Assembly: GCA_951406725.2 (NCBI GenBank)
Contig: OX597826.1
Location: forward strand, 67,828,001 to 67,892,000
Reading direction: 5' to 3'
Length of the DNA: 64,000 nucleotides
Origin: Octopus vulgaris
Lineage: Eukaryota
Position numbers and translations under genes: made by a program. Every line of letters begins with the position of its first letter. The first letter of the stretch is position 1. Below are positions 24,629 through 56,680 of this stretch, piece after piece. The notes under the pieces are model-generated. The model made no database searches and had not been told where the DNA came from. It was given only the letters and a program-made list of their open reading frames with translations.

Positions 24629-24723
24629 TCAATATAGGGTGGCAAAAAATTTCGTAGAATTTATTTGCCACCAGCGGCCTAGTGGGAAAAATTAAATAGT
24701 CATAGACCATTTATAAGTTCAAC

Positions 24724-25305
24724 ATCACAATCAAGGAATGGCCATAATAGGCCATTCACCCACTAGAAATAACAGCCAAGCTTCAACCGCAAAATAACAT
24801 TAATTCCGCAAACCAGGAGAAAATTAAAAAAACATTTACCCTGTAATTTCTTATACGATGCACCGTTTCATCTATTGTTTAATGGTAAACTAACCTGATT
24901 AAATTAAATCAAGCCAATCTTGATTTAATTTAATTTTCTGGTTAATTCCGTAATGGAATCGGCGGCTTATATTTGCTGCCGATAAATTTGGCGCGAGAGC
25001 GATGATTTGAAAATTTTAGGTCAGATATTGCCGAGGCAGGGATAGAGGTGCCTCGTGATAATATCTGCTCGGATCTGGCTGTTTCTTACTGACGAATCTA
25101 TCGGCCTATGGAAGATTGGCTTGATTTAATTTAATCAGGTTAGTTTACCATTAAACAATAGATGAAACGGTGCATCGTATAAGAAATTACAGGGTAAATG
25201 TTTTTTTAATTTTCTCCTGGTTTGCGGAATTAATGTTATTTTGCGGTTGAAGCTTTGGCTGTTATTTCTAGTGGGTGAATGGCCTATTACGGCCATTCCT
25301 TGATT

Positions 25306-25310
<5 letters not shown>
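24724..25310. mobile_element. HHR-bearing element with near-perfect ~198-bp inverted arms (24724-24921 / 25112-25310)
   Basis: Arms almost identical in reverse complement; right end abuts (TA)n; another copy of the terminus at 33546-33663. Confidence 0.92.
25082..25186 (+). ncRNA. Type I hammerhead ribozyme with canonical core and enlarged loop II
   Basis: Stem I TTTCTTA/TAAGAAA; CTGACGA 25089-95; stem II ATCTAT/ATAGAT; GAAA 25164-67; stem III CGGT-gc-ATCG; GUA cleavage predicted after 25179. Confidence 0.85.
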
Positions 25311-29418: not shown

Positions 29419-29475
<57 letters not shown>

Positions 29476-29501
29476 CTTTATTTTAAGCAGCAGAAAATTC
29501 A

Positions 29502-29553
29502 ACAAAATCTGTTACTCTGAGTTTCTCGTTGCCGTTCATCAGACAGTTTTTGC
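29502..29553 (-). ncRNA. Mirror-image hammerhead ribozyme (left arm of the perfect palindrome)
   Basis: Exact reverse complement of 29556-29607. Confidence 0.8.
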
Positions 29554-29555
29554 TA

Positions 29556-29607
29556 GCAAAAACTGTCTGATGAACGGCAACGAGAAACTCAGAGTAACAG
29601 ATTTTGT
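29556..29607 (+). ncRNA. Type I hammerhead ribozyme (right arm of the perfect palindrome)
   Basis: Stem I GCAAAAACTGT/ACAGATTTTGT; CTGATGA 29567-73; a-CG-GCAA-CG-a; GAAA 29584-87; CTC-a-GAG; GUA, cleavage after 29596. Confidence 0.8.
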
Positions 29608-31234
29608 TGAATTTTCTGCTGCTTAAAATAAAGCATATTACTCTACCACTGGTATTTGAGTACTCTTTTTCCACCTTGTTTCACATTTATGTGTTTACTC
29701 CGGTCTATATATATATATATATATATATACATATATGCGACGGGATTCTTTCAGTTTCCGTCTACCAAATCCACTCACAAGGCCCGAGGCTATAGTAGAA
29801 GACACTTGCCCAAAGTGCCAGGCTGTGGGACTGAACCCAATGGAAGTTTATTACAAAATGTTCATTTCAAGAAGCTACTGTGCATTGCTAATATTTTGTG
29901 TGACTTCCCTTAGCTTGAGCATGTCCATCGATGCGCCTGGAAGAAAATGCGTACAAATCCTTCACCATTCTTCACAGGTATGCGATGCCATTCTTTGTGG
30001 TCTTCTGGGAATATTCCGCTTGTTAGAATGCGAAATGTCCCACGATACATGACGAAAACAGGGAAGTTTGAGGGTAAGAATTTGATGACTCGGGGATTCA
30101 TAACAACGATGGTTCAAGAAAGCTGGTAAAAATTTAAGGTAACTTGAATAGCGCCAAATACATCTAGTTGCTGGCGAATATGCTGCTGCCACAGATTGCG
30201 TACAACGCAACAGACTCTGGCTGATGAAGGTGTTACAGTATTGAAAGATTGGTCAGCTCAGAGCCCTGACTTAAATGTGAACAGATACACAGAGAAATCT
30301 TCGTCTGAAGAATCCACGCAATTTTGAAGAGTTGTGGGAGCTCAGCTATAGAGAAAGTCATCTCATACCTGTTAAGATAGTGAAGGATTTGTACGCATCT
30401 CTTCGCAAGTGCATCGAAGCAATTATTCAAGCTAAGGGAAGCCGCACAAAATATTTACAATGTACAGTAAATTCTTGAAATGAATATTATGTAATAAATT
30501 TTCATTTTAGCTATTTTTCTGTTTTAAAATGCTTTATCTTCATTAGTTTATGTGAGGTGGCCGAAAACTTCTGCACGGCCAATTTTGGTGGTCGTCTCGC
30601 ATCATCCCCTCTCATTCAGAACCCCTACTACAAAATATAATGACTAGGTGTGGAAATGACTTCAACAGGGGTCACTGTTCCATCTATAAAAACCGCAATG
30701 CGCATCAGTCCGTTATAAGTTGGCAATTAGTAGAAATTTATAGCAGTTTATGCTGGCCGAAGACTTTAGCAGGGTACTGTAGTAGAAGAGTCTTGGCCAT
30801 TTAACCACACAGTGCGACTGAACCCGGAATAATATTATTTTGAGTGTGGCACGTGCCTGTATATTTGTGAGTATTTATAGTGCATTTTGTGTGTATATAT
30901 ATGTGCATTTTTGTGTATATATATGTGGAATTTTTGTGTATATATATGTTCATTTTTTGTGTATATATATGTGTATAAGTTTGTGGGAGTGTTTGTTTGT
31001 TTGTGTGTGTGTGTGTGTATTTGCATTTGTGGATATTAATTGCTTAATATCTAGACTTTCTTTGGCTCATTACATATGTCTAAGAACAAATTGATGTAAT
31101 CTTTATTAAAGAATTTCTTATTTCAATGGAGCAAGAAATATTTTATACAGTACTATCGAAAACTGCATGTCCCTCATGGAATTCCGACAACATAAGGCAG
31201 ACGTGGAGAAATAGGATGCTTGATATTATATTTA

Positions 31235-45816: not shown

Positions 45817-45862
45817 GTATATGTATATGTATATATATAAATATATATATGTGAGTGTGTGT
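45388..45862. repeat. Compound (TA)n/(TATG)n array
   Basis: Direct read. Confidence 0.97.
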
Positions 45863-47480
45863 GCTCATGTGTCTGCCAACTTTGTCATGGCATACTTGGA
45901 AGTCTAAATATACGAGCACGCTAGACTGAAATTTGGAAACAACTTACAAAAATACTCACCAACTGGAAACGCTACCTGGATGACTGTTTCATAACAGTCA
46001 CATAAACATGAACAATTCTCAAAATTTAAATTCTTAATCAACAGTAATAACCAGAATAACCATTTGCTACCCAAAACATTCTAAAATAAATACACCGTTC
46101 ACCTTCCGAAGCCCGAGAAAAGCGACTCAAAGAATTTTAAAATACATTACTAGATAGAAAATACCTGACCAGTCTAATAAAAAATGGAATAGAACGCGCC
46201 AAATTGCCCACCAAAAATACAATCCCACATGTCAGAACGTGCAACTGACCTAACTGTGGAACTTGCATCTTCTTCTTAGAGGGCCCAACATACAAATTTC
46301 AGTCAGGTCAAAAGTTTACCATAAAATATGACTTCACCTATGCTTCGAAGAACTTAATCTATGTTCTCAAATGTGGAGGTTGTAGCGGTGACTACATTGG
46401 TCAAACTAGCTTAACTTTGAGTGATAGACTTACGGTACACAGGCAACAAATCCGGGACCCCACCACTAGGAAAATTCCCGTAAGCAAGCACCTAGACCAA
46501 TGCCCCGCAGACACAAACACTAAATTTCAAATCTTCCTTTCTATCAATGCTCTGGAAACACTTCAACCCAAATCCGTTTAAATAAGGAAAGCATACTGAT
46601 TAAAAAATATAAACCACAACTGAATATCGTTTAGAAAGAAGAAAAAGCAGTAAAAAGAATAGAAAAAAGATTCAATTCCAATACAAAACAACAAGGGAGA
46701 ACAAAAAAATTGTTTTGAAATCTTTAGTAACAATCTTCCACCCGGTTTCCGAAACCGCGACTCCAAATCATCACACAAACACCAGTTGACGACGTCACCT
46801 ACTTCTAGTCCAATGAAATTCTACAAACACCAGACCAATTAAAACCCAACTTCAACAAATACAACGAAATGACCCTTTAAAGAACCAACGAACCAGAACG
46901 ACTTATGACCGTCTCCACAGGGAAACCAACCAAACATAACGACAAGCTTGACCACGGAACAAAAAGCGTCACCAGTATTTTAACGAATCAAAAATTAGAT
47001 CTGCTCGCGTAAAAAAATATAAATACATCTGGTCCCACTACAAATAAAAGCGTCTACTAGAAGAGGATCAAAGAAACTGTAAACTAAATACCTTTTTTTA
47101 ATATTTTCATTTCACCCTTGTTTTTTTCAGTATGACTTGCCGACCACCACTAATTTTAATGAACTTTGTACTTTCAAACAAATTGATATTCAGTTTTAAT
47201 ATTATTGACTACTATGAACATTCAAACTTACACCTGTCCTCCAAATTCACAATGCTAAATTTATCTGTTTTGAACATGTTAATTTATCAATATCGAAACA
47301 TTTAAAGATGTTTTTCTAATTCATAGTTTTAAACTTTTACTATTGATAAACAAACATGTTTTTCTAATTCATAACTTTACACTTTTACCATTGATAAACA
47401 AAAAATATTGTTGAAACTAGTTTGGTATATATGTAAATAAATGTATTTTAAAAATTTACGGGTTTTTAAATTTAGGTGTA
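45863..47480 (+). mobile_element. Penelope-like element relic (RT + GIY-YIG + 3' region with degenerate HHR at 47386-47427)
   Basis: [53 protein letters not shown]; TACCA-tTGATaA-acaa..ttgtt-GAAAC-ta-GTT-TGGTA. Confidence 0.88.
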
Positions 47481-47973: not shown

Positions 47974-49097
47974 GGTATGTACATATATGTATATATGCAT
48001 ATATATATGTTTTGTGTCTGTCTTTGTTCCCCCCTCTCTTGACAACTGATGCTGGTGTGTTTAACTAGTGGTTCTGCAAAATTGACCGATAAAATAAGTA
48101 CCAGCCTTTCAAAGAAGTCCTGGAACCCCAGCACGGCCACAGTCAAATGACCGAGACAAGTAAAAGAGTAAGCAGGTCGTTATACCAGAGAGATACGCTG
48201 ATATATCCAGCCTTGGCGTGAGACAAGAAAATAAATACCTCCACCAACGTCTGCACGATATGTATTTGAAGTCCGAGTGAAACGTATATTATTGGTATCA
48301 TATATCTGTAATGTGGCTAGTGTGTAATGGCCGCAAGTAAACGACCATTGACTACTTAGTCTCCTAACCGACCAGACCAGCTGAGACAAGACATTCGCAA
48401 CGTGATTTCAAAGAATCAAAAGAACTGATCGCATCTCATTATCAAAGTTAGCTTCTGGCGAAACATATTTAAGTGGAAATAAATCTGAAGCATCTGAACT
48501 TTCATTGTATAAAAAATTCAGATTGGTCTGGGTGCATATAAGAAAGACAATATATATATATATATTTATAGATTTGTTTTTCATGTAATCTATGTGAGTT
48601 TACTTCTGCGTATACATGTGTATATGTGTGTGTGTGTAAATGTCTTTGTATACTTGTGGAGGTCATGTGCGAACTTTATTCCTTACAGTAATATCAATTC
48701 TATTATTGGATGTTGTAAAAGATTTGGATAAACCTCTGTTTCGTGAAAAAGAAAGTGAAAGAAAAGAAGACAAAAAACCGGCAGATAAAAAAACACGAAA
48801 AGAAAAAAAACAAATTTGAAAAATAAATGTTTATCGATAGAAAAAGTCTGCACCAGCCGAATGTTTACCATAATTTCATAATTCAATTGACAATTCTTTG
48901 GTAAATAACAGAAACATACAAACTTACAAATATGACAAGGGAAATAATGTGTGTGTGTATGTATGTATTTACGCACCTACATATATCTGTTTTTCTTCGT
49001 GTATATATATATTTTTTTTTCTTTTCCAATGTGCATTTTCACTTATTTTTCTTATTTACCCCTTACATTTCCACGTGTAGTTTCTATTTTCTTTTTG

Positions 49098-49140
<43 letters not shown>

Positions 49141-49406
49141 GTATGTATATAAATTTCTGTGTGCGTGTATTTGCATTTGCGTTTGTCCAACCCACCATTA
49201 CTTGACAACCGATGTTTGTGTGTTTATGTCCGCGAAACACAGCGGTTCAGCTTAGGAGAACGATGGAATAAGTATTATACTTACAAATAATAAATTCAGT
49301 GTCGATTTCTCTTCGACCAGAGGCGGTGACCCGGCACGGCCGTAATCAAACGACTTAAACTTGTAAAAGAGAATATGTATATATATATATATATATATAT
49401 AGTAGG

Positions 49407-49457
<51 letters not shown>

Positions 49458-49524
49458 ATGGATAGATAGAGAGAAACAACATACTGCTTTGCACGCACGA
49501 ATATTTTTTAATGCCAATAATTAC

Positions 49525-49572
49525 CTTTCGAATAGGATTTGATTCCCCAAGTGCAGATGACAGAGTGGATAC
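49525..49572 (-). CDS. Possible 48-nt internal exon (all three frames open)
   Basis: Minus strand CATTTTCAG|GTATCC...TTCGAAAG|GTAATT; length divisible by 3; non-repetitive context. Confidence 0.3.
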
Positions 49573-50257
49573 CTGAAAATGTTTGGATAAGCAAATACAA
49601 TGATGTTTAATCGTCATCTTGAGTTAGGCAATGAGTGAACTGAGACGGTTTATGTTTTATCCACGTAATTTTTTTTCTTAATCCCGACGCCATGTTTTTC
49701 TCACCGTGCCTATATTGGAGCGAATTATTAGTTGTAAATGGCATTGGATTAAAAGAATATTTAGAGAGTTTGAAGACATCCTTTGTGGTACTTTTATCTG
49801 GATCTCTTCGTTCTGTGGTCAACGTAACATTTTGATCTTCCTTGAGAGATCGCCAATATACAGTAATTCTAGTGGATTACTGGTGTCACTATTACCGACC
49901 AGGCTTCTGCATTGTCTTAAATACACTGTCAGTAAATTACACCATTTATCCAAAAAAATAATGAAGATAAGTCGTTGATGGAATGCTAATTTGAATATAA
50001 GCGACGTGGGTTAGAGCTGAACCGAAGTGAAACAAGGACGATAAGGTATTTTATTTAAGAATAATCTCGTGGAAATTAGATTTCAATTAACGACACCCAC
50101 TGCGATAATGATTATAATTATTTCAAAATTCATATTTCATATTCCGCTTCTAATATCAAACATACATACAAAAAAAGAAACAAACAAAGAATACTGAAGA
50201 AAAAAATCGCTCAGCCATATCGTATTGTAGTAGGCTAGTTTCAAAAGCATGACGAAC

Positions 50258-50797
50258 AGCAAGCTGGCAGAAACGTTAGCACGCCAGGTAAATGCTTAGC
50301 GGTATTTCGTCTGCGTTACGTTGTGAGTTCAAATTCCACCGAGGTCGACTTTGCCATTCATCTTTTCGGGGTCGACAAATTAAGTACCAGTTACGCACTG
50401 GGGTCGATGTAATCGACTTAATACCTATGTCTGTCCTTGTTTGTCCCCTCTGTGTTTAGCCCGTTGTGGGTAATAAAGAAATAGGTATTTCGTCTGCCGT
50501 TACGTTCTGAGTTCAAACTCCGCCGAGGTCGACTTTTGCCTTTCATCCTCTCGGGGTCGATTAAAAAAGTACCAGTTACGCACTGGGGTTGATATAATCG
50601 ACTTAGTCCGTTTGTCCTTTCTGTGTTTAGCCCCTTGTGGGTAGTAAAGAAATAGGTATTTCGTATTTGTTTACGTTCTGAGTTCAAATTCTGCCGAGGT
50701 CGAATTAAGTACCAGTTGAATACTGTTGTCTTGGGGACAATCTAATCGACTGCCCCTCCCCCAAGTTTTCGGGCCTTGTGCCTAGAGAAGGAAAGAA
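50258..50797 (+). mobile_element. SINE family A multimer (three body units)
   Basis: One head; repeated GGTATTTCGT...GAGTTCAAA...GAGGTCGA units; one tail. Confidence 0.9.
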
Positions 50798-51483
50798 TGT
50801 GAATGTAAGTCAAAATGCAAATTATTCACCGAAGCCTTTTCTATTTACAATTAATTTCCCTTAAGAAAGAACTGAAGGGACATACACAAACGTTGATTAT
50901 GACCCTTGCAGCAAAGATTCATTTTGAATAAATATTTTATTGGGTTTATATTGACCGATAATATTTATATGCAAGCATTCCTTTATCGATTGCTGATTAT
51001 CGAATTGTTGCGTTAGATATTTATATAAACGGTTGCAATTCGACTAAGATTTGCGTCAGGAAACGTAATTACAGATGCGCTCACAAATGCATGCATTCTA
51101 TATGTATGCATATGTATGTGCGTGTATATATATAATATATGTATGTATGTATGGATGTATATGTATGTATGCATATGTATGTATATATATGTATGTCTAT
51201 AAGTATGCACATATACATATATGTGTATGTATATATATATATATATACATATATTTGTATATACATATATGTGTGTGAGTGTGTGTGTTTGTGTGTCTGT
51301 GAACGTACCTATGTGAATGCTCACACATGCACACTAATATACTTACACATATATGCATGTTTATACATATATACATATACATGCGTATAAAACGTATTTT
51401 TCCATGATCCATCTCTCATTTACACACACACACACGTGTATATATATATATATGTATGTATTATATATATATATATATGTCTG

Positions 51484-51543
<60 letters not shown>

Positions 51544-51562
51544 TATATATATATATATATAT

Positions 51563-51609
<47 letters not shown>

Positions 51610-51696
51610 ATATATGTATGTATATATATATATATATATATATTTATGTATTATATATATATATGTATGTATGTATTATATATATATATATGTACG

Positions 51697-51747
<51 letters not shown>

Positions 51748-51819
51748 TATATCTATGGTCAGAAGGTTTGAGGTACGTAGCATTTGATAAATCTATGATA
51801 AATCTTTTTCAATGGAAAG

Positions 51820-51930
51820 CTGTGCTGAAGAAGGATGTGAAATATATATGCAATATATATTAAATATATATCAAAAATATATGGAATATATATTCAATAT
51901 GTTTGTAATCCAGAAACATGATGTTCACAG
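51820..51930 (+). ncRNA. Type I hammerhead ribozyme, copy 1
   Basis: Stem I CTGTG/CACAG; CTGAAGA 51825-31; a-GGAT...ATCC-a with a long AT-rich loop; GAAA 51913-16; CAT-g-ATG; GUU, cleavage after 51925. Confidence 0.78.
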
Positions 51931-52435
51931 ATAACCGCCAGACTTCGTATTCGTTATCTATTCCTTCTGTTTTGCATATGTGAGTTACAGGGTCTGTCAT
52001 GCCCGGAGTCCAACTTTGATAGAAATAAGCATTCTTGACTGCTATTTCTATTTTTTCGGTATGCGGTCAAGCAACCTGTTTTGCCTGTCCCTTTTTCTTA
52101 TATACAATATATATACTGAACTTTACAGAAGTTCCTGCCGGTAATCGGCTATATTTACATACCGAATTCTACCAGTAAATAATTGGGTTTTTTTTTAAAG
52201 CCTTTATAGAAATTATTTACTCTTATCATTATATTACTATTTGGATTTTTCACTCCCTTTGACAACCTAACTGTAATGCGCATGGCAAAAGTTTGGAGGG
52301 AAGATTTATGAATTCAAACGTCTATGTAGGTTTAGCCTTTGCTCACTTTCTTCAAATATTTTGATGTCGCATGGTCAGAAGGTTTGAGGTACGTAGCATT
52401 TGATAAATCTATGATAAATCTTTTTCAATGGAAAG

Positions 52436-52546
52436 CTGTGCTGAAGAAGGATGTGAAATATATATGCAATATATATTAAATATATATCAAAAATATATGG
52501 AATATATATTCAATATGTTTGTAATCCAGAAACATGATGTTCACAG
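52436..52546 (+). ncRNA. Type I hammerhead ribozyme, copy 2
   Basis: Same as copy 1, offset 616 bp; cleavage after 52541. Confidence 0.78.
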
Positions 52547-52881
52547 ATAACCGCCAGACTTCGTATTCGTTATCTATTCCTTCTGTTTTGCATATGTAAG
52601 TTACAGGGTCTGTCATGCCCGGAGTCCAACTTTGATAGAAATAAGCATTCTTGACTGCTATTTCTATTTTTTCGGTATGCGGTCAAGCAACCTGTTTTGC
52701 CTGTCCCTTTTTCTTATATACAATATATATACTGAACTTTACAGAAGTTCCTGCCTGTAATCGGCTATATTTACATACCGAATTCTACCAGTAAATAATT
52801 GGGTTTTTTTTTAAAGCCTTTATAGAAATTATTTACTCTTATCATATATATATATGTATGCATATATGTATATATAAATGC

Positions 52882-52942
<61 letters not shown>

Positions 52943-53945
52943 ATTTGCAAGCATCTTTGTGGCTGTTGTTGCGTTCAGATCCTCCGCGGAGATGCAGATT
53001 TGTGGACATCAAGGAAAAAAATGCTCGTTCAGTCGTATATCACCGTGGGGACGAGCTCCCAGTATCTTTAAGACCCCAGACAATCTGCTTAGCAGCATTT
53101 CGTCCGTCTGTACATTCTGATTTTAAACTCCGCCACGGTCGATTTACCTTTCGTCGTTTCAGAGTCAAGGAAGTAAGTACCAGATTTGCACTGGTATCAA
53201 AGTTATGGTTTGCCGTCCACCTCACAAATATATTGCCTTTTTGGCTATTTTGCAATTAATATTGTTATTAGTTTTATTGTTAGTTTTATTTTGGAGAATG
53301 AGATGTCTTTTCTAGAGTAAATAGCTAATGATTTCTTTAAATTTCAATCATGCGAAAGAAGACATTTTGCACAATTCCAAAATATGTTATTATGAAGTAA
53401 TTTCAATCTGATTTTTCAATTTTTCAACAAACAAAATTAAAGGGAAATAATATATTTTATCTTTATTATTGATATTTCGTTTACAAAACTTCGATGCATT
53501 TCTCTTATGACGTCGTAATAAGACAATTTCTGTAGTAAATGCGTGAGCCATTTTTTACTTTTGTGTTTATATCTTCAATGCTTCAGCAGACACCAGCATC
53601 GGATTTATAGACGGCTTTGTCTATAATCAGTATTGCATTGAGATATTTCACCAACTGTAGGATAGGTAAGCATAGGCATATATCCACACGCAAACACATA
53701 CCGACATATATAACCAGCTGCACATATTAATATATACACAAGCGCATCCTTGTAACAGCGTATATCGATCATTGCTGCACTCACGTTGTGGGCCTACCCG
53801 TAGATTGATGCAGGGAAACATGTTAGCTTCTAAAGAGTAGGTTAGCTAGTTTGTTTGCTTTTGAAAACATTTTCTGTTAGGATGTCCCTACATAAAATAA
53901 ATATATATTGTGATGCTGAGAACAGAACTGTGTCGGTCCTACATA

Positions 53946-54156
53946 CTCTTTTACTCTTTTACTTGTTTCAGTCATTTGGCTGCGGCCATGCTGGAGCACC
54001 GCCTTTAGTCGAGCAAATCGACCCCGGGACTTATTCTTTGTAAGCCCAGTACTTATTCTATCGGTCTCTTTTGCCGAACCGCTAAGTGACGGAGACGTAA
54101 ACGCACCAGCATCGGTTGTCAAGCAATGCTAGGGAGACAAACACAGAAGCACAAAC

Positions 54157-54193
<37 letters not shown>

Positions 54194-54365
54194 CATATAT
54201 ACGACAGGCTTCTTTCAGTTTCCGTCTACCAAATCCACTCACAAGGCATTGATCGTCCCGGGGCTATAGCAGAAGACAGTTGCCCAAGATGCCACGCAGT
54301 GGGTCTGAACCCGGAACCATGTGGTTGGTTAGCAAGCTACTTACCACACAGCCACTCCTGCGCCT
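53946..54365 (-). mobile_element. SINE family B, full length
   Basis: Nearly identical to 12755-13115, with the internal (CA)/(TA) tract present. Confidence 0.92.
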
Positions 54366-55095
54366 ATATGTATGTGGTATCCAGCAAATCGCATAACTGC
54401 TTCTTCCGAACGTTATCAGAGCTACATGGTTCCCTATAAAGGCAAATAAAAAAAAAAGAACTTCAAGACACAACCTCACACTTTGGTTTAACGGGTGGTT
54501 CATTGTTGACAGCCTGCATAGGCTCAGGAGGAAGTCAACAGCTCCGGGATAGAACGATATTTGCTCAGATACCGTGAGAGGAAAATAGTTTGTCAATTCG
54601 GTAGAGGCTGCTACATTCATTTGTATAATATTATTGCAAGCAGCATATGATCACCGAAGCAAAGTTCATTCACCTATATGAAACCAATATTTCAATATAC
54701 CTTGAGTCACAAGTTTATCCATGAAAAACTATTGACAAGATCGTCAGAACATGAATGTAAAATATCCACAACTAAAGACACATGGTTTATAGAGTAACGG
54801 AAATATTCGAAGTCAGTCCGGTGAACTCTCGAGTCTGTACACACCAGCTGCAACATGCTGGTTGGTGTCATAACATGGAATCAAGGGGTACAGACTGTGT
54901 CACGTAACCGTATAGACTCTTAGCTAGGCCCTTTCAGTGCTGAAAGCCGGGGGTTCCAAACAGAAACTTACAAATCCGTTTCTTCCCATGTACTCGTTAT
55001 GAAAATCATATTCACGTGGTAATGTTTTAGAAGAAATGTATTCTGTTGCATTTGTTATACAGGACAACAACAGATAAAGTCTAATTGCACACCTG

Positions 55096-55126
<31 letters not shown>

Positions 55127-55139
55127 ATGTAACTCTTTA

Positions 55140-55400
55140 ACTAGAATCAGCTAGAGAGTTGTGGCCATGCTGGGATACCGACATCAGCTTTCGTACAACT
55201 TCGTGCCTTGAAACCTCCTCTGATATGTGGCATTTGGTAAATGAGGAACTTTGAAATTGCTACTCTATCTATCTTGCCTGCTGCGAGGTAGGCTCATCTG
55301 GAACTCTTTACACGAGTAGAACCATATTTGTTTTGAAGGCATCTACAGCCAACTATGCACGTCTCTCATACACTTTGGGAGAATACTGAGGAATTCAGAT
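55140..55400 (-). mobile_element. CR1/L2-like LINE 3' end (same family as 19020-19560)
   Basis: Reverse complements of CCAGATGAGCCTAC and CCAAATGCCACATATCAGAGG. Confidence 0.8.
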
Positions 55401-55429
55401 GTGGGCCAGTGAGAGCCAAGAGTCAGAGG

Positions 55430-56680
55430 TTGGCCAAGTTGCCCTCATGTAAGCAAATGAAATATATTTTTGAAATGGCCCCCAGCCCTCGCAATCCACA
55501 CACATCTTCCATTGGTGTTGCAGTGCTTGGATTCCAGTAGTGAAAAAGGTCTCATCCCGTTAGTCAGAAATATTCGCGATAGGAGATATGACATCACGAT
55601 CACTATACTACTGGTTACCAACCAAGTATTTTGTTTATGTTGAGGAACAGATGATAGTCATATGGGTCCAAATCAGGAGAATAGCGATGATGATCCACCA
55701 GTTCAAAGCCACAGTCACGCACAGAAGCCTTTGGAACCAAGTATTTGTGCGCTGGAGAATTGTCCTGATTAAACAAAAACACTTTCGCCAATCTTCCAGG
55801 GTGTTTCGTCTTGAGAGCCTTTTGTATGAAACTCAGCAAGATGGCATAGCACTCGCCGATGCTGATGTAGCCCTATGGAATATAATCAATAAACACGAAG
55901 CCCTTTTCATTCCCCCCTCCCCCCCAAAAAAAAACGAGGTTGTCTTCCTCCCTGCAGATGAAACGATCTTGGCCTCCTTTGAAGCAGGCGAGGAAAAGAA
56001 TTTCCACTGCATGGATTGTCTGCTTGTCTCTGGCTGAAAGTGATGAACACAACACTCATCCTAGGTTGGGAAACTTGCAGAAAATAAGACAGATCTGCTT
56101 CAAAGATTATCAGATTTTCCCGTCATAGTGTGATCAACCTGTTGCACTCTTGACCAGATGTCAGAAGACGCTGGTATCTCCCAAGCAGAAAACTTCATCA
56201 TGCCACGTTCATTGTGTAGATTATTGTCATCTCTCTCGCGGGATATGTTAATAGCATTGGCTATTTGGTTCATAATCAATCACCTATCAACCATCGCAAT
56301 ATGGTGAACACGATTAATATTTCCCACCAAGTTGTTAGTTGCTGGACGTCCAGAAGCAGGGTCATATTCACGACTGTTGAAGCTGGATCGTTATCTCCTA
56401 ATGAAGCAACTATGTGAACATGGATGTTCCTCGGGGTTAAAGCATTTCTTCTGTAGAAACTTAATAATACCATGATGCCAAACTTTGTCTCCTTTGAAGA
56501 AAAGTTACTACAAGCTACTACTGAAGTCTTTCAAATGCCAGAAATCAATTTCTCTAGAAAAATAAGAAAAAAAAAACACAATACCGGTATTAATAAGTGT
56601 TGAGTTTAATGCATTCAAGATTTCATAGGCCTAGCATCACTCCTTCATAGTGAGCCTATGAACGTTTCAGTACCTCTTTG
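55430..56680 (-). mobile_element. Near-full-length decayed mariner
   Basis: KGFVFIDY, FNQDNSPAHK, GFELVDHHRYSPDLDPYDYHLF; N-terminus LTPRNIH..IVASLGD. Confidence 0.88.

Follow-up and report, generated by a model that had tools for sequence, protein, structure and literature searches.

A 616-nt tandem element of Octopus vulgaris with type I hammerhead motifs, a probable non-LTR retrozyme with PLE-type insertions

The element and its hammerhead motifs

The window analysed here is a stretch of 64,000 nucleotides from the genome of Octopus vulgaris, to which all coordinates refer unless a unit position or another locus is named. Between two microsatellites it contains an element with a GC content of 33%, consisting of 1.78 tandem units of 616 nt (51755..52849). 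The original prediction described two near-identical 475-bp direct repeats with a period of 616 bp. The repeats (51755-52229 and 52371-52845) do align without gaps at an offset of 616, with 2 mismatches (51982/52598 and 52140/52756), and the period stands, but the length of 475 bp only reflects the 5' truncation of this particular copy; the repeat unit is the 616-nt monomer, and the direct repeats are not terminal repeats. The absence of coding capacity is borne out, since the longest stop-to-stop frames lying fully within the element span 68-69 aa, and an ORF scan of the unit found no RT or GIY-YIG endonuclease frame. Microsatellites are likewise present on both flanks, TA on the left and TA followed by TG on the right. 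The features of the locus are as follows.

51439..51754: left (TA)n microsatellite (tract to 51756 by repeat scan), the likely insertion target, with no discernible target-site duplication
51755..52849, + strand: the whole insertion, a single arm running through unit positions 1-616 and then 1 to about 480; its 5' end is a truncation point and its 3' end is the fixed site S2 of the family
51820..51930, + strand: hammerhead 1, type I, supported by sequence, fold and covariation across families; stem I 51820-24/51926-30, core CUGAAGA 51825-31, stem II 51833-36/51908-11 with unpaired A 51832 and A 51912, GAAA 51913-16, stem III CAUGAUG 51917-23, then GUU, with the predicted cut after 51925
51837..51907, + strand: AT-rich hairpin extension of stem II, an 11-nt repeat in about 5 copies, particular to the 616-nt family
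51926..52541, + strand: predicted cut-to-cut monomer of 616 nt, a candidate circle
52035..52179, + strand: conserved module of unit 1, ACTGCTATTTCTA..TTCGGTATG..CATACCGAA, with a predicted helix 52055-63/52158-66
52094..52115, + strand: S1, a TA-like site at unit positions ~340-361, not an end in this copy
52224..52240, + strand: S2 site of unit 1, internal in this copy
52436..52546, + strand: hammerhead 2, identical to hammerhead 1, with the predicted cut after 52541
52651..52795, + strand: conserved module of unit 2, with a predicted helix 52671-79/52774-82
52836..52849, + strand: S2, the fixed 3' end, fused to (TA)n and probably a start of reverse transcription
52844..52939: right microsatellite, TA and then (TG)n, by repeat scan

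Other repeats of the window include two further two-arm inverted insertions in (TA)n. The smaller (29456-29720) carries back-to-back minimal hammerheads, with CTGATGA at 29567 (+) and 29542 (-), and is another PLE-type end; the other (24630-25310) belongs to a different family and has a hammerhead at 25089 with an 8-bp stem I and a long stem II. Tandem copies of a dispersed repeat of ~184 bp, probably a SINE, occupy 1860-2420 and 50303-50750.

A hammerhead in each repeat had been predicted, and both repeats show the layout CTGTG-CTGAAGA-A-GGAT...ATCC-A-GAAA-CATGATG-TT/CACAG, in which the slash marks the predicted cut. CTGAAGA starts at 51825 and 52441, and GAAACATGATGTT ends at 51925 and 52541, so that the predicted cuts are exactly 616 nt apart. 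The type I core is complete (CUGAAGA, GAAA, GUU and stems I-III), and the 121-nt region, folded on its own, forms all three stems of a hammerhead (-25.3 kcal/mol). Judged from its sequence, the hammerhead is real as a motif, and self-cleavage is predicted.

The efficiency of that cleavage may be low, because the G10.1-C11.1 pair which closes stem II, and which is described as highly conserved among PLE hammerheads (PMC4209133), is replaced by an A-A (51832, 51912) beside the GGAU/AUCC helix, a peculiarity that the original prediction left unflagged. According to the same source, an extra base on the 5' side of stem II is common in PLE hammerheads and an A on the 3' side is not; in this genome the 3' base is also A in sister family G, and C, A or U in a Hydra family. 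Minimal PLE hammerheads of metazoans are reported to cleave poorly even as dimers (PMC4209133), and in vitro cleavage was obtained for 1 of 9 predicted frog retrozyme dimers (bioRxiv 10.64898/2026.07.22.740005).

The AT-rich loop II of about 70 nt that had been proposed is 71 nt long and indeed AT-rich, but it is a paired hairpin of 11-nt repeats and not a loop. The core boxes are 81 nt apart in the 616-nt family and only 32 nt apart in a sister family of 78% identity, and the extension is therefore a lineage-specific expansion. The Rfam search suggested with the original prediction, run on 49000-56000, returned no hammerhead even at E<=5, only false matches to AT repeats; the long stem II may defeat the models.

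The idea that the near-palindromic stem III works through dimeric folding agrees with predictions for the natural two-unit transcript, in which stem III forms between units with a probability of 0.83-0.84 and within a unit with one of at most 0.06. Two single hammerheads are 3.5 kcal/mol less favourable than the double one, which itself lies 4.3 kcal/mol above the minimum, and the outer stem I has a probability of 0.01 in the free dimer fold. Folding thus favours a dimeric over a single-unit ribozyme. The 616-nt circle is predicted to fold at -156.3 kcal/mol (z = -5.5 against 60 dinucleotide shuffles), with z-scores of -3.9 and -5.7 for units of sister families and also of -3.2 for the antisense strand.

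The family, its relatives and the conserved module

A search of the 2.8-Gb genome, in which the window lies on contig C13, gave 201 matches to the 616-nt unit at the 40 places that were scored out of 1390 candidates. Whole units are 93-99% identical at many loci, arrays reach about 13 units, and subfamilies of 616-644 nt are present. An 18-mer spanning the cut site in the 3' half of the ribozyme has 463 exact matches and a downstream 19-mer has 733, with none for either reversed control; since the first 100 listed matches of the 19-mer fall in about 53 insertions, the family may be estimated at ~400 insertions. The proposed genome-wide search yields hundreds of exact copies on many chromosomes. 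The tandem family is young.

A looser hammerhead pattern finds 646 genome sites, among them sister hammerheads, one of which is the terminal repeat of a Hydra-type PLE. Downstream of the ribozyme, a motif with 5640 exact matches (control 0) brought to light non-coding tandem relatives whose units measure 550, about 562 and 585-594 nt; the first of these is 78% identical to the 616-nt unit over its whole length (419/538 aligned bases). Sister retrozyme families of ~594, 550 and 562 nt and others were seen at loci L273-L277, L299/L302, L315-L339, L279 and L360, and the 585-594-nt group is apparently several times more abundant than the 616-nt family.

Stem I differs in sequence among six homologous families and yet always pairs (CTGTG/CACAG, ATGGTG/CACCAT, TCTACG/CGTAGA, CCTACG/CGTAGG, ACTGTA/TACAGT and ATCATG/CATGAT), while in the family-level matches a palindrome or near-palindrome makes up stem III (CATG, CGTACG, CGCG, and CATGATG in the 616-nt family). 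The hammerhead harvest for this comparison required pairing, but the homology link between the families did not, and on these alignments the ribozyme stems covary among homologous families.

Public sequencing runs contain matching sequence under seven organism codes; none of these is listed as RNA, and the 14 that are guessed to be RNA consist of assembled contigs. In X5 (run type guessed), one of four runs examined, a contig loops back over exactly one unit, which is no evidence for circles because a circle, a tandem transcript and DNA would all yield such a contig. Contig 15 of the same run (502 nt, depth 158, run type guessed) has the module, matches an L360-type relative and is possibly an abundant sister RNA.

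Unit positions 281-425 are the best-kept region across families and are common to the sisters of 550-645 nt. Within this "module", the helix TTCGGTATG/CATACCGAA together with an inner hairpin pairs in 94% of alignment cells, compared with at most 44% when the alignment is slid (the second half of one row, L319, is wrongly cut). The long helix shows one-sided G-U changes only and is for this reason predicted, not proven. Variants at unit positions 259-445, a region chosen post hoc, make up 2 of 26 inherited variants and 75 of 202 singletons (p = 0.002), which suggests that the module is under selection. It may represent a putative protein-binding signal that positions S1 and S2.

A search for an autonomous parent that carries the module covered 109 PLE-search loci, in a non-exhaustive survey, and found none; the module profile likewise found no match in the autonomous PLE terminal repeats at these loci, and motif searches of the accessible part of the PMC8557442 supplement did not find the exact motifs. 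No PLE ORF is joined to the family copies at 100 family loci, and no retrozyme-PLE chimera occurs at 27 single-arm 5' junctions. The likeness to PLE terminal repeats seen in this survey is limited to the hammerhead, which resembles that of Hydra-type repeats, and to a 15-nt match of S1 to a Neptune-like end. Of the autonomous hammerheads seen, the closest belongs to a Hydra-clade PLE that has an intact ORF of 842 aa and carries the motif in its terminal repeat.

Several candidate parents were rejected. The Neptune-like PLE-A (776-aa ORF) and PLE-B (781 aa) have no DNA similarity beyond the 15-nt 3'-end motif; 51 Hydra-type loci hold only separate retrozyme insertions; L142, apparently an ORF-linked copy, is a nested insertion into a LINE; L147 and L123 are copies placed in (TA)n at PLE ends; and a relative from a run contig proved to be a further non-coding member of the family. 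The Hydra clade was assigned by eye from the DKT, RW(K) and CxCx5C motifs and the absence of CCHH, as described in PMC8557442; Pfam and PDB gave no RT match for the Hydra-type ORFs.

The query that found the intact PLE families is a decayed 3' fragment of a Neptune-like PLE in the window (45850-47300), with a GIY-YIG endonuclease frame at 46249-46581. A very young Neptune-like PLE (L103:2909-6621, L101-L120), with identical endonuclease scores at about 100 places, has a 776-aa RT-EN frame after an overlapping upstream frame of ~480 aa, a TG-rich 3' region and a possible U3-A8 variant hammerhead. There are at least 4 Hydra-type PLE groups (L240-L259), with intact ORFs of 777-1091 aa, Asn-rich linkers and long-stem-II hammerheads, a diversity that far exceeds the single Octopus family in the accessible part of the PMC8557442 supplement. 

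Insertion anatomy and the template

Insertions were examined at the 40 loci of the longest matches, at 40 loci of ribozyme matches on C1 and C2, and at a third set of 20 loci that have the downstream motif without an exact ribozyme match. The first two sets comprise 81 insertions at 80 loci, of which 60 have two arms, 20 are one-strand and 1 is complex; several "single" arms carry a very short inverted partner. In two-arm insertions the arms lie back to back with their 3' ends facing outward, and TA-type repeats are found on both sides of 62 of the 81 (a hand count without a background control). Arms end on their 3' side either near unit position 480 (S2) or at other TA-like sites, for the most part at about 350-361 (S1), S1 being the commonest end of second arms in other insertions of the family. 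The 5' ends vary in position and frequently meet at hairpins, and those of paired arms lie within 20 nt of each other in 12 of 60 pairs, compared with 4 expected.

The use of S2 follows a rule. Among 72 two-arm insertions exactly one end is at S2 in 67, none in 5 and both in 0, whereas 15.6 insertions with two S2 ends would be expected (p about 2e-8). Autonomous PLEs of the same genome, where both ends are visible and as judged by eye, have one long and one short end in 8 of 8 Neptune-like and 10 of 12 Hydra-type cases. PLE insertions are described as partial tandems in (TA)n targets that carry an inverted truncated copy and have a tail at only one end (PMC8557442), and a PLE protein cuts and extends both strands in vitro from two internal start sites (PMC11167929). 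The insertions of the 616-nt family show the same partial tandem, inverted 5'-truncated arm, one-end tail and microsatellite targets, so that their anatomy is the PLE signature. The suggestion that the element is mobilised by a PLE gains weight from this, since both the two-arm anatomy and the one-S2 rule match autonomous PLEs of the same genome.

The reading as a retrozyme is upheld as well, given tandem non-coding units that each carry a type I hammerhead and many dispersed copies. The 3' ends are fixed, the 5' truncations random and the copies spread over many chromosomes, as expected for retrotransposition, and the repeats are tandem units of variable permutation with a GC content below 50%, as expected for the non-LTR type. 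At the sequence level, the testable criteria given for non-LTR retrozymes in the accessible text of PMC7229834 and of bioRxiv 10.64898/2026.07.22.740005 (hereafter the 2026 preprint) all describe this family.

The identity of the template is a separate question, on which the variants within and between insertions bear. Units diverge by 0.54% within an insertion, 0.49% across its arms and 1.8% between insertions. Of the shared variants, 103 of 124 are fixed in all overlapping units, and both arms carry 12 of the 21 private variants that are fixed in an insertion. No two insertions share at least 2 within-insertion polymorphisms, and 14 pairs share one, with 14.8 expected by chance. This pattern fits one template molecule or one homogeneous source, and it favours a circular template only mildly. 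The longest arrays have higher-order patterns that show local amplification. The insertion at L151:3565-4711 is a mosaic, with three variants diagnostic of the other subfamily on its short inverted arm, and may reflect a second template or gene conversion.

A direct footprint of cleavage would be the termination of arms at the cut site. An initial test found no pile-up there among loci selected for containing the ribozyme; because of that selection it was set aside in favour of a census defined by the downstream motif. This census covers C1 and C2 to 132.5 Mb, comprises 52 insertions and 87 arms and leaves out one 84% match, arms shorter than 40 nt and one site. Passes cross the cut site in 70 of 77 cases and stop at 169-178 in 7, against 1.4 expected, one of the 7 being an alignment artefact by eye. 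Five of the 87 arms start at the predicted cut end (172-175), with 2 clean junctions (L354, L359), 2 ambiguous ones and 1 explained by a hairpin. Since the enrichment is just as high at a hairpin hot spot (258-266), the arm stops at the cut site are suggestive only. In sister families, ends can be seen 0-14 nt past their own cut sites, an informal observation from partly biased sets. The one-S2 rule is no proof of a circle either, because autonomous PLEs obey it too.

Origin and comparison with known systems

The element is very probably a non-LTR retrozyme that owes its mobility to a PLE acting in trans. Its cycle would begin with read-through transcription of a tandem copy into a multimer RNA, in which neighbouring hammerheads would join through their near-palindromic stem III and cleave, weakly, after unit position 171, and the cut monomers would likely be ligated into 616-nt circles. 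The PLE protein would then bind the conserved module, cut both strands of a (TA)n target and prime one cDNA at S2 and the other at a different TA-like site, in most cases S1. Both cDNAs could extend for up to several units before being joined at self-complementary spots, and the longest arrays would be enlarged later through local duplication. Circles are marginally favoured over uncut multimers as the main template. As to the helper, the balance tilts slightly towards a Hydra-clade PLE, and a Neptune-like PLE is a possible but less probable source of the protein.

The alternative with most substance, which differs from the preferred explanation only on the template, is that a non-autonomous PLE is copied from uncut read-through multimers, with a weak or vestigial hammerhead inherited from the terminal repeat of a PLE and no role for circles. 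This has a real chance of being correct, if a somewhat smaller one than its converse. Uncut multimers explain the 70 of 77 passes that run through the cut site equally well, the A-A at the base of stem II and the poor cleavage of minimal metazoan PLE hammerheads (PMC4209133) point the same way, and for a lizard PLE unprocessed RNA is the main substrate and the ribozyme is dispensable for insertion in vitro (PMC11167929). Against it, the ribozyme has been kept with compensatory changes across families that are otherwise more than 20% diverged, a few arms begin at the predicted cut, and no insertion pair shares a multi-variant unit pattern, though young homogeneous sources would also give that result. 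A different possibility, raised in the 2026 preprint, is that the units are orphaned terminal-repeat fragments of an autonomous PLE, immobile alone and amplified locally to minisatellites by unequal exchange. The higher-order duplications of the longest arrays and the abundance in this genome of 5'-truncated PLE ends with similar hammerheads would suit such an origin, but 0 of 100 family loci join a PLE ORF, and arms that cross the unit junction share one permutation and the fixed 3' ends at many independent loci, both arms of inverted insertions included; this origin is largely refuted and very improbable.

Tandem arrays or 5' inversions and AT-rich sites are also known from rolling-circle DNA elements (non-autonomous Helitrons or Helentrons) and from SINEs mobilised by LINEs with twin priming, in either of which the hammerhead would be incidental, and one copy of the family does lie inside a LINE ORF (L142). 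That copy is a nested insertion, however, and the family has no fixed 5' terminus. In LINE twin priming the arms abut in template position, whereas here they overlap, and the anatomy matches that of autonomous PLEs of the same genome, which makes this class of explanation highly unlikely. An assembly or haplotype artefact, or a chance motif, could be entertained at a locus whose microsatellite flanks can mislead assemblers; with two units that differ at 2 positions, hundreds of exact copies on many chromosomes and stems that covary across families, it is refuted for the family as a whole and its probability is negligible.

If the preferred explanation of a retrozyme mobilised by a PLE is extended to the relatives, the tentative picture is of a long-lived group of 550-645-nt circular RNA parasites, with thousands of copies and no surviving autonomous parent, that captures a PLE protein via the module; each insertion might be written from one monomer circle by two primings, and a minority from cut linear RNA. 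If that is true, the genome holds direct footprints of ribozyme cleavage and of rolling-circle reverse transcription, which have so far only been proposed. The questions touched are by what route animal retrozymes move, whether their template is a circle and whether hammerheads of the PLE type cleave in vivo. In the accessible text of the retrozyme papers PLEs are termed merely "a strong candidate" helper, or are inferred from co-occurrence and homology. A very young family with hundreds of intact insertions, two defined start sites, a candidate binding module and intact PLE families alongside allows a direct in vitro test of the helper, and would offer a test case for the spread of RNA parasites.

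Autonomous relatives provide the closest comparisons for the insertions. Hydra-clade PLEs (Craig et al. 2021, PMC8557442), which include Hydra-1_Obim, share with the 616-nt element the (TA)n targets, the type I hammerhead, the inverted 5'-truncated arm and the tail at one end. Their hammerheads in the octopus genome have 47-65 nt between core boxes and a palindromic stem III, and one family shares CTGAAGAAGG..CC.GAAACAT with the element. They encode an RT and GIY-YIG, whereas the element is non-coding; their ends lie roughly 30-110 nt past the cut site, compared with 180 and 310 nt here, and the module was not found in the terminal repeats examined. The Poseidon PLE of Anolis (Frangieh et al. 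2024, PMC11167929) is similar in its two internal reverse-transcription starts, its AT-rich targets and the cutting and extension of both target strands. It differs in being autonomous and in the spacing of its start sites (30-40 nt, against about 130 nt in the element), and in the accessible text no read ends at its cut site.

The metazoan non-LTR retrozymes of coral, mussel and axolotl (Cervera & de la Pena 2020, PMC7229834) are likewise non-coding tandems with one type I hammerhead per unit, low GC, a highly self-paired monomer, a weak stem III acting as a dimer and coexistence with PLEs. Their units measure 170-400 nt and those described here 616-644 nt, and the octopus element has in addition the long stem II extension and the A-A at the stem II base. 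Its targets are (TA)n and its insertions two-arm and inverted, whereas those retrozymes have visible target-site duplications; circles have been demonstrated for them, while the octopus circle is a candidate predicted from genome sequence. 

The size is not exceptional, because the retrozyme consensus lengths reported for vertebrates, insects and coral run from 51 to 972 bp (Li, Clavereau & Pollet, bioRxiv 10.64898/2026.07.22.740005). That preprint treats animal retrozymes as non-autonomous PLEs, which is the same class with the same proposed PLE origin, and its accessible text covers vertebrates, three insects and one coral but no mollusc. A literature search at the level of listings, with Repbase and most subscription papers outside its scope, found no description of the 616-nt family or of two-arm anatomy in retrozymes, and the literature searched contained no cephalopod description of the abundant repeat group with 5640 motif matches; the supplements of PMC7229834 and of the preprint may hold a cephalopod example. 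The homologous autonomous terminal repeat known for the retrozymes of the preprint was not found at the loci surveyed here, and the link to PLEs, which there rests on co-occurrence and terminal-repeat homology, is drawn here from the anatomy of the insertions. What is new in the octopus is thus a set of unusually informative insertions in a member of an already described class of retrozymes.
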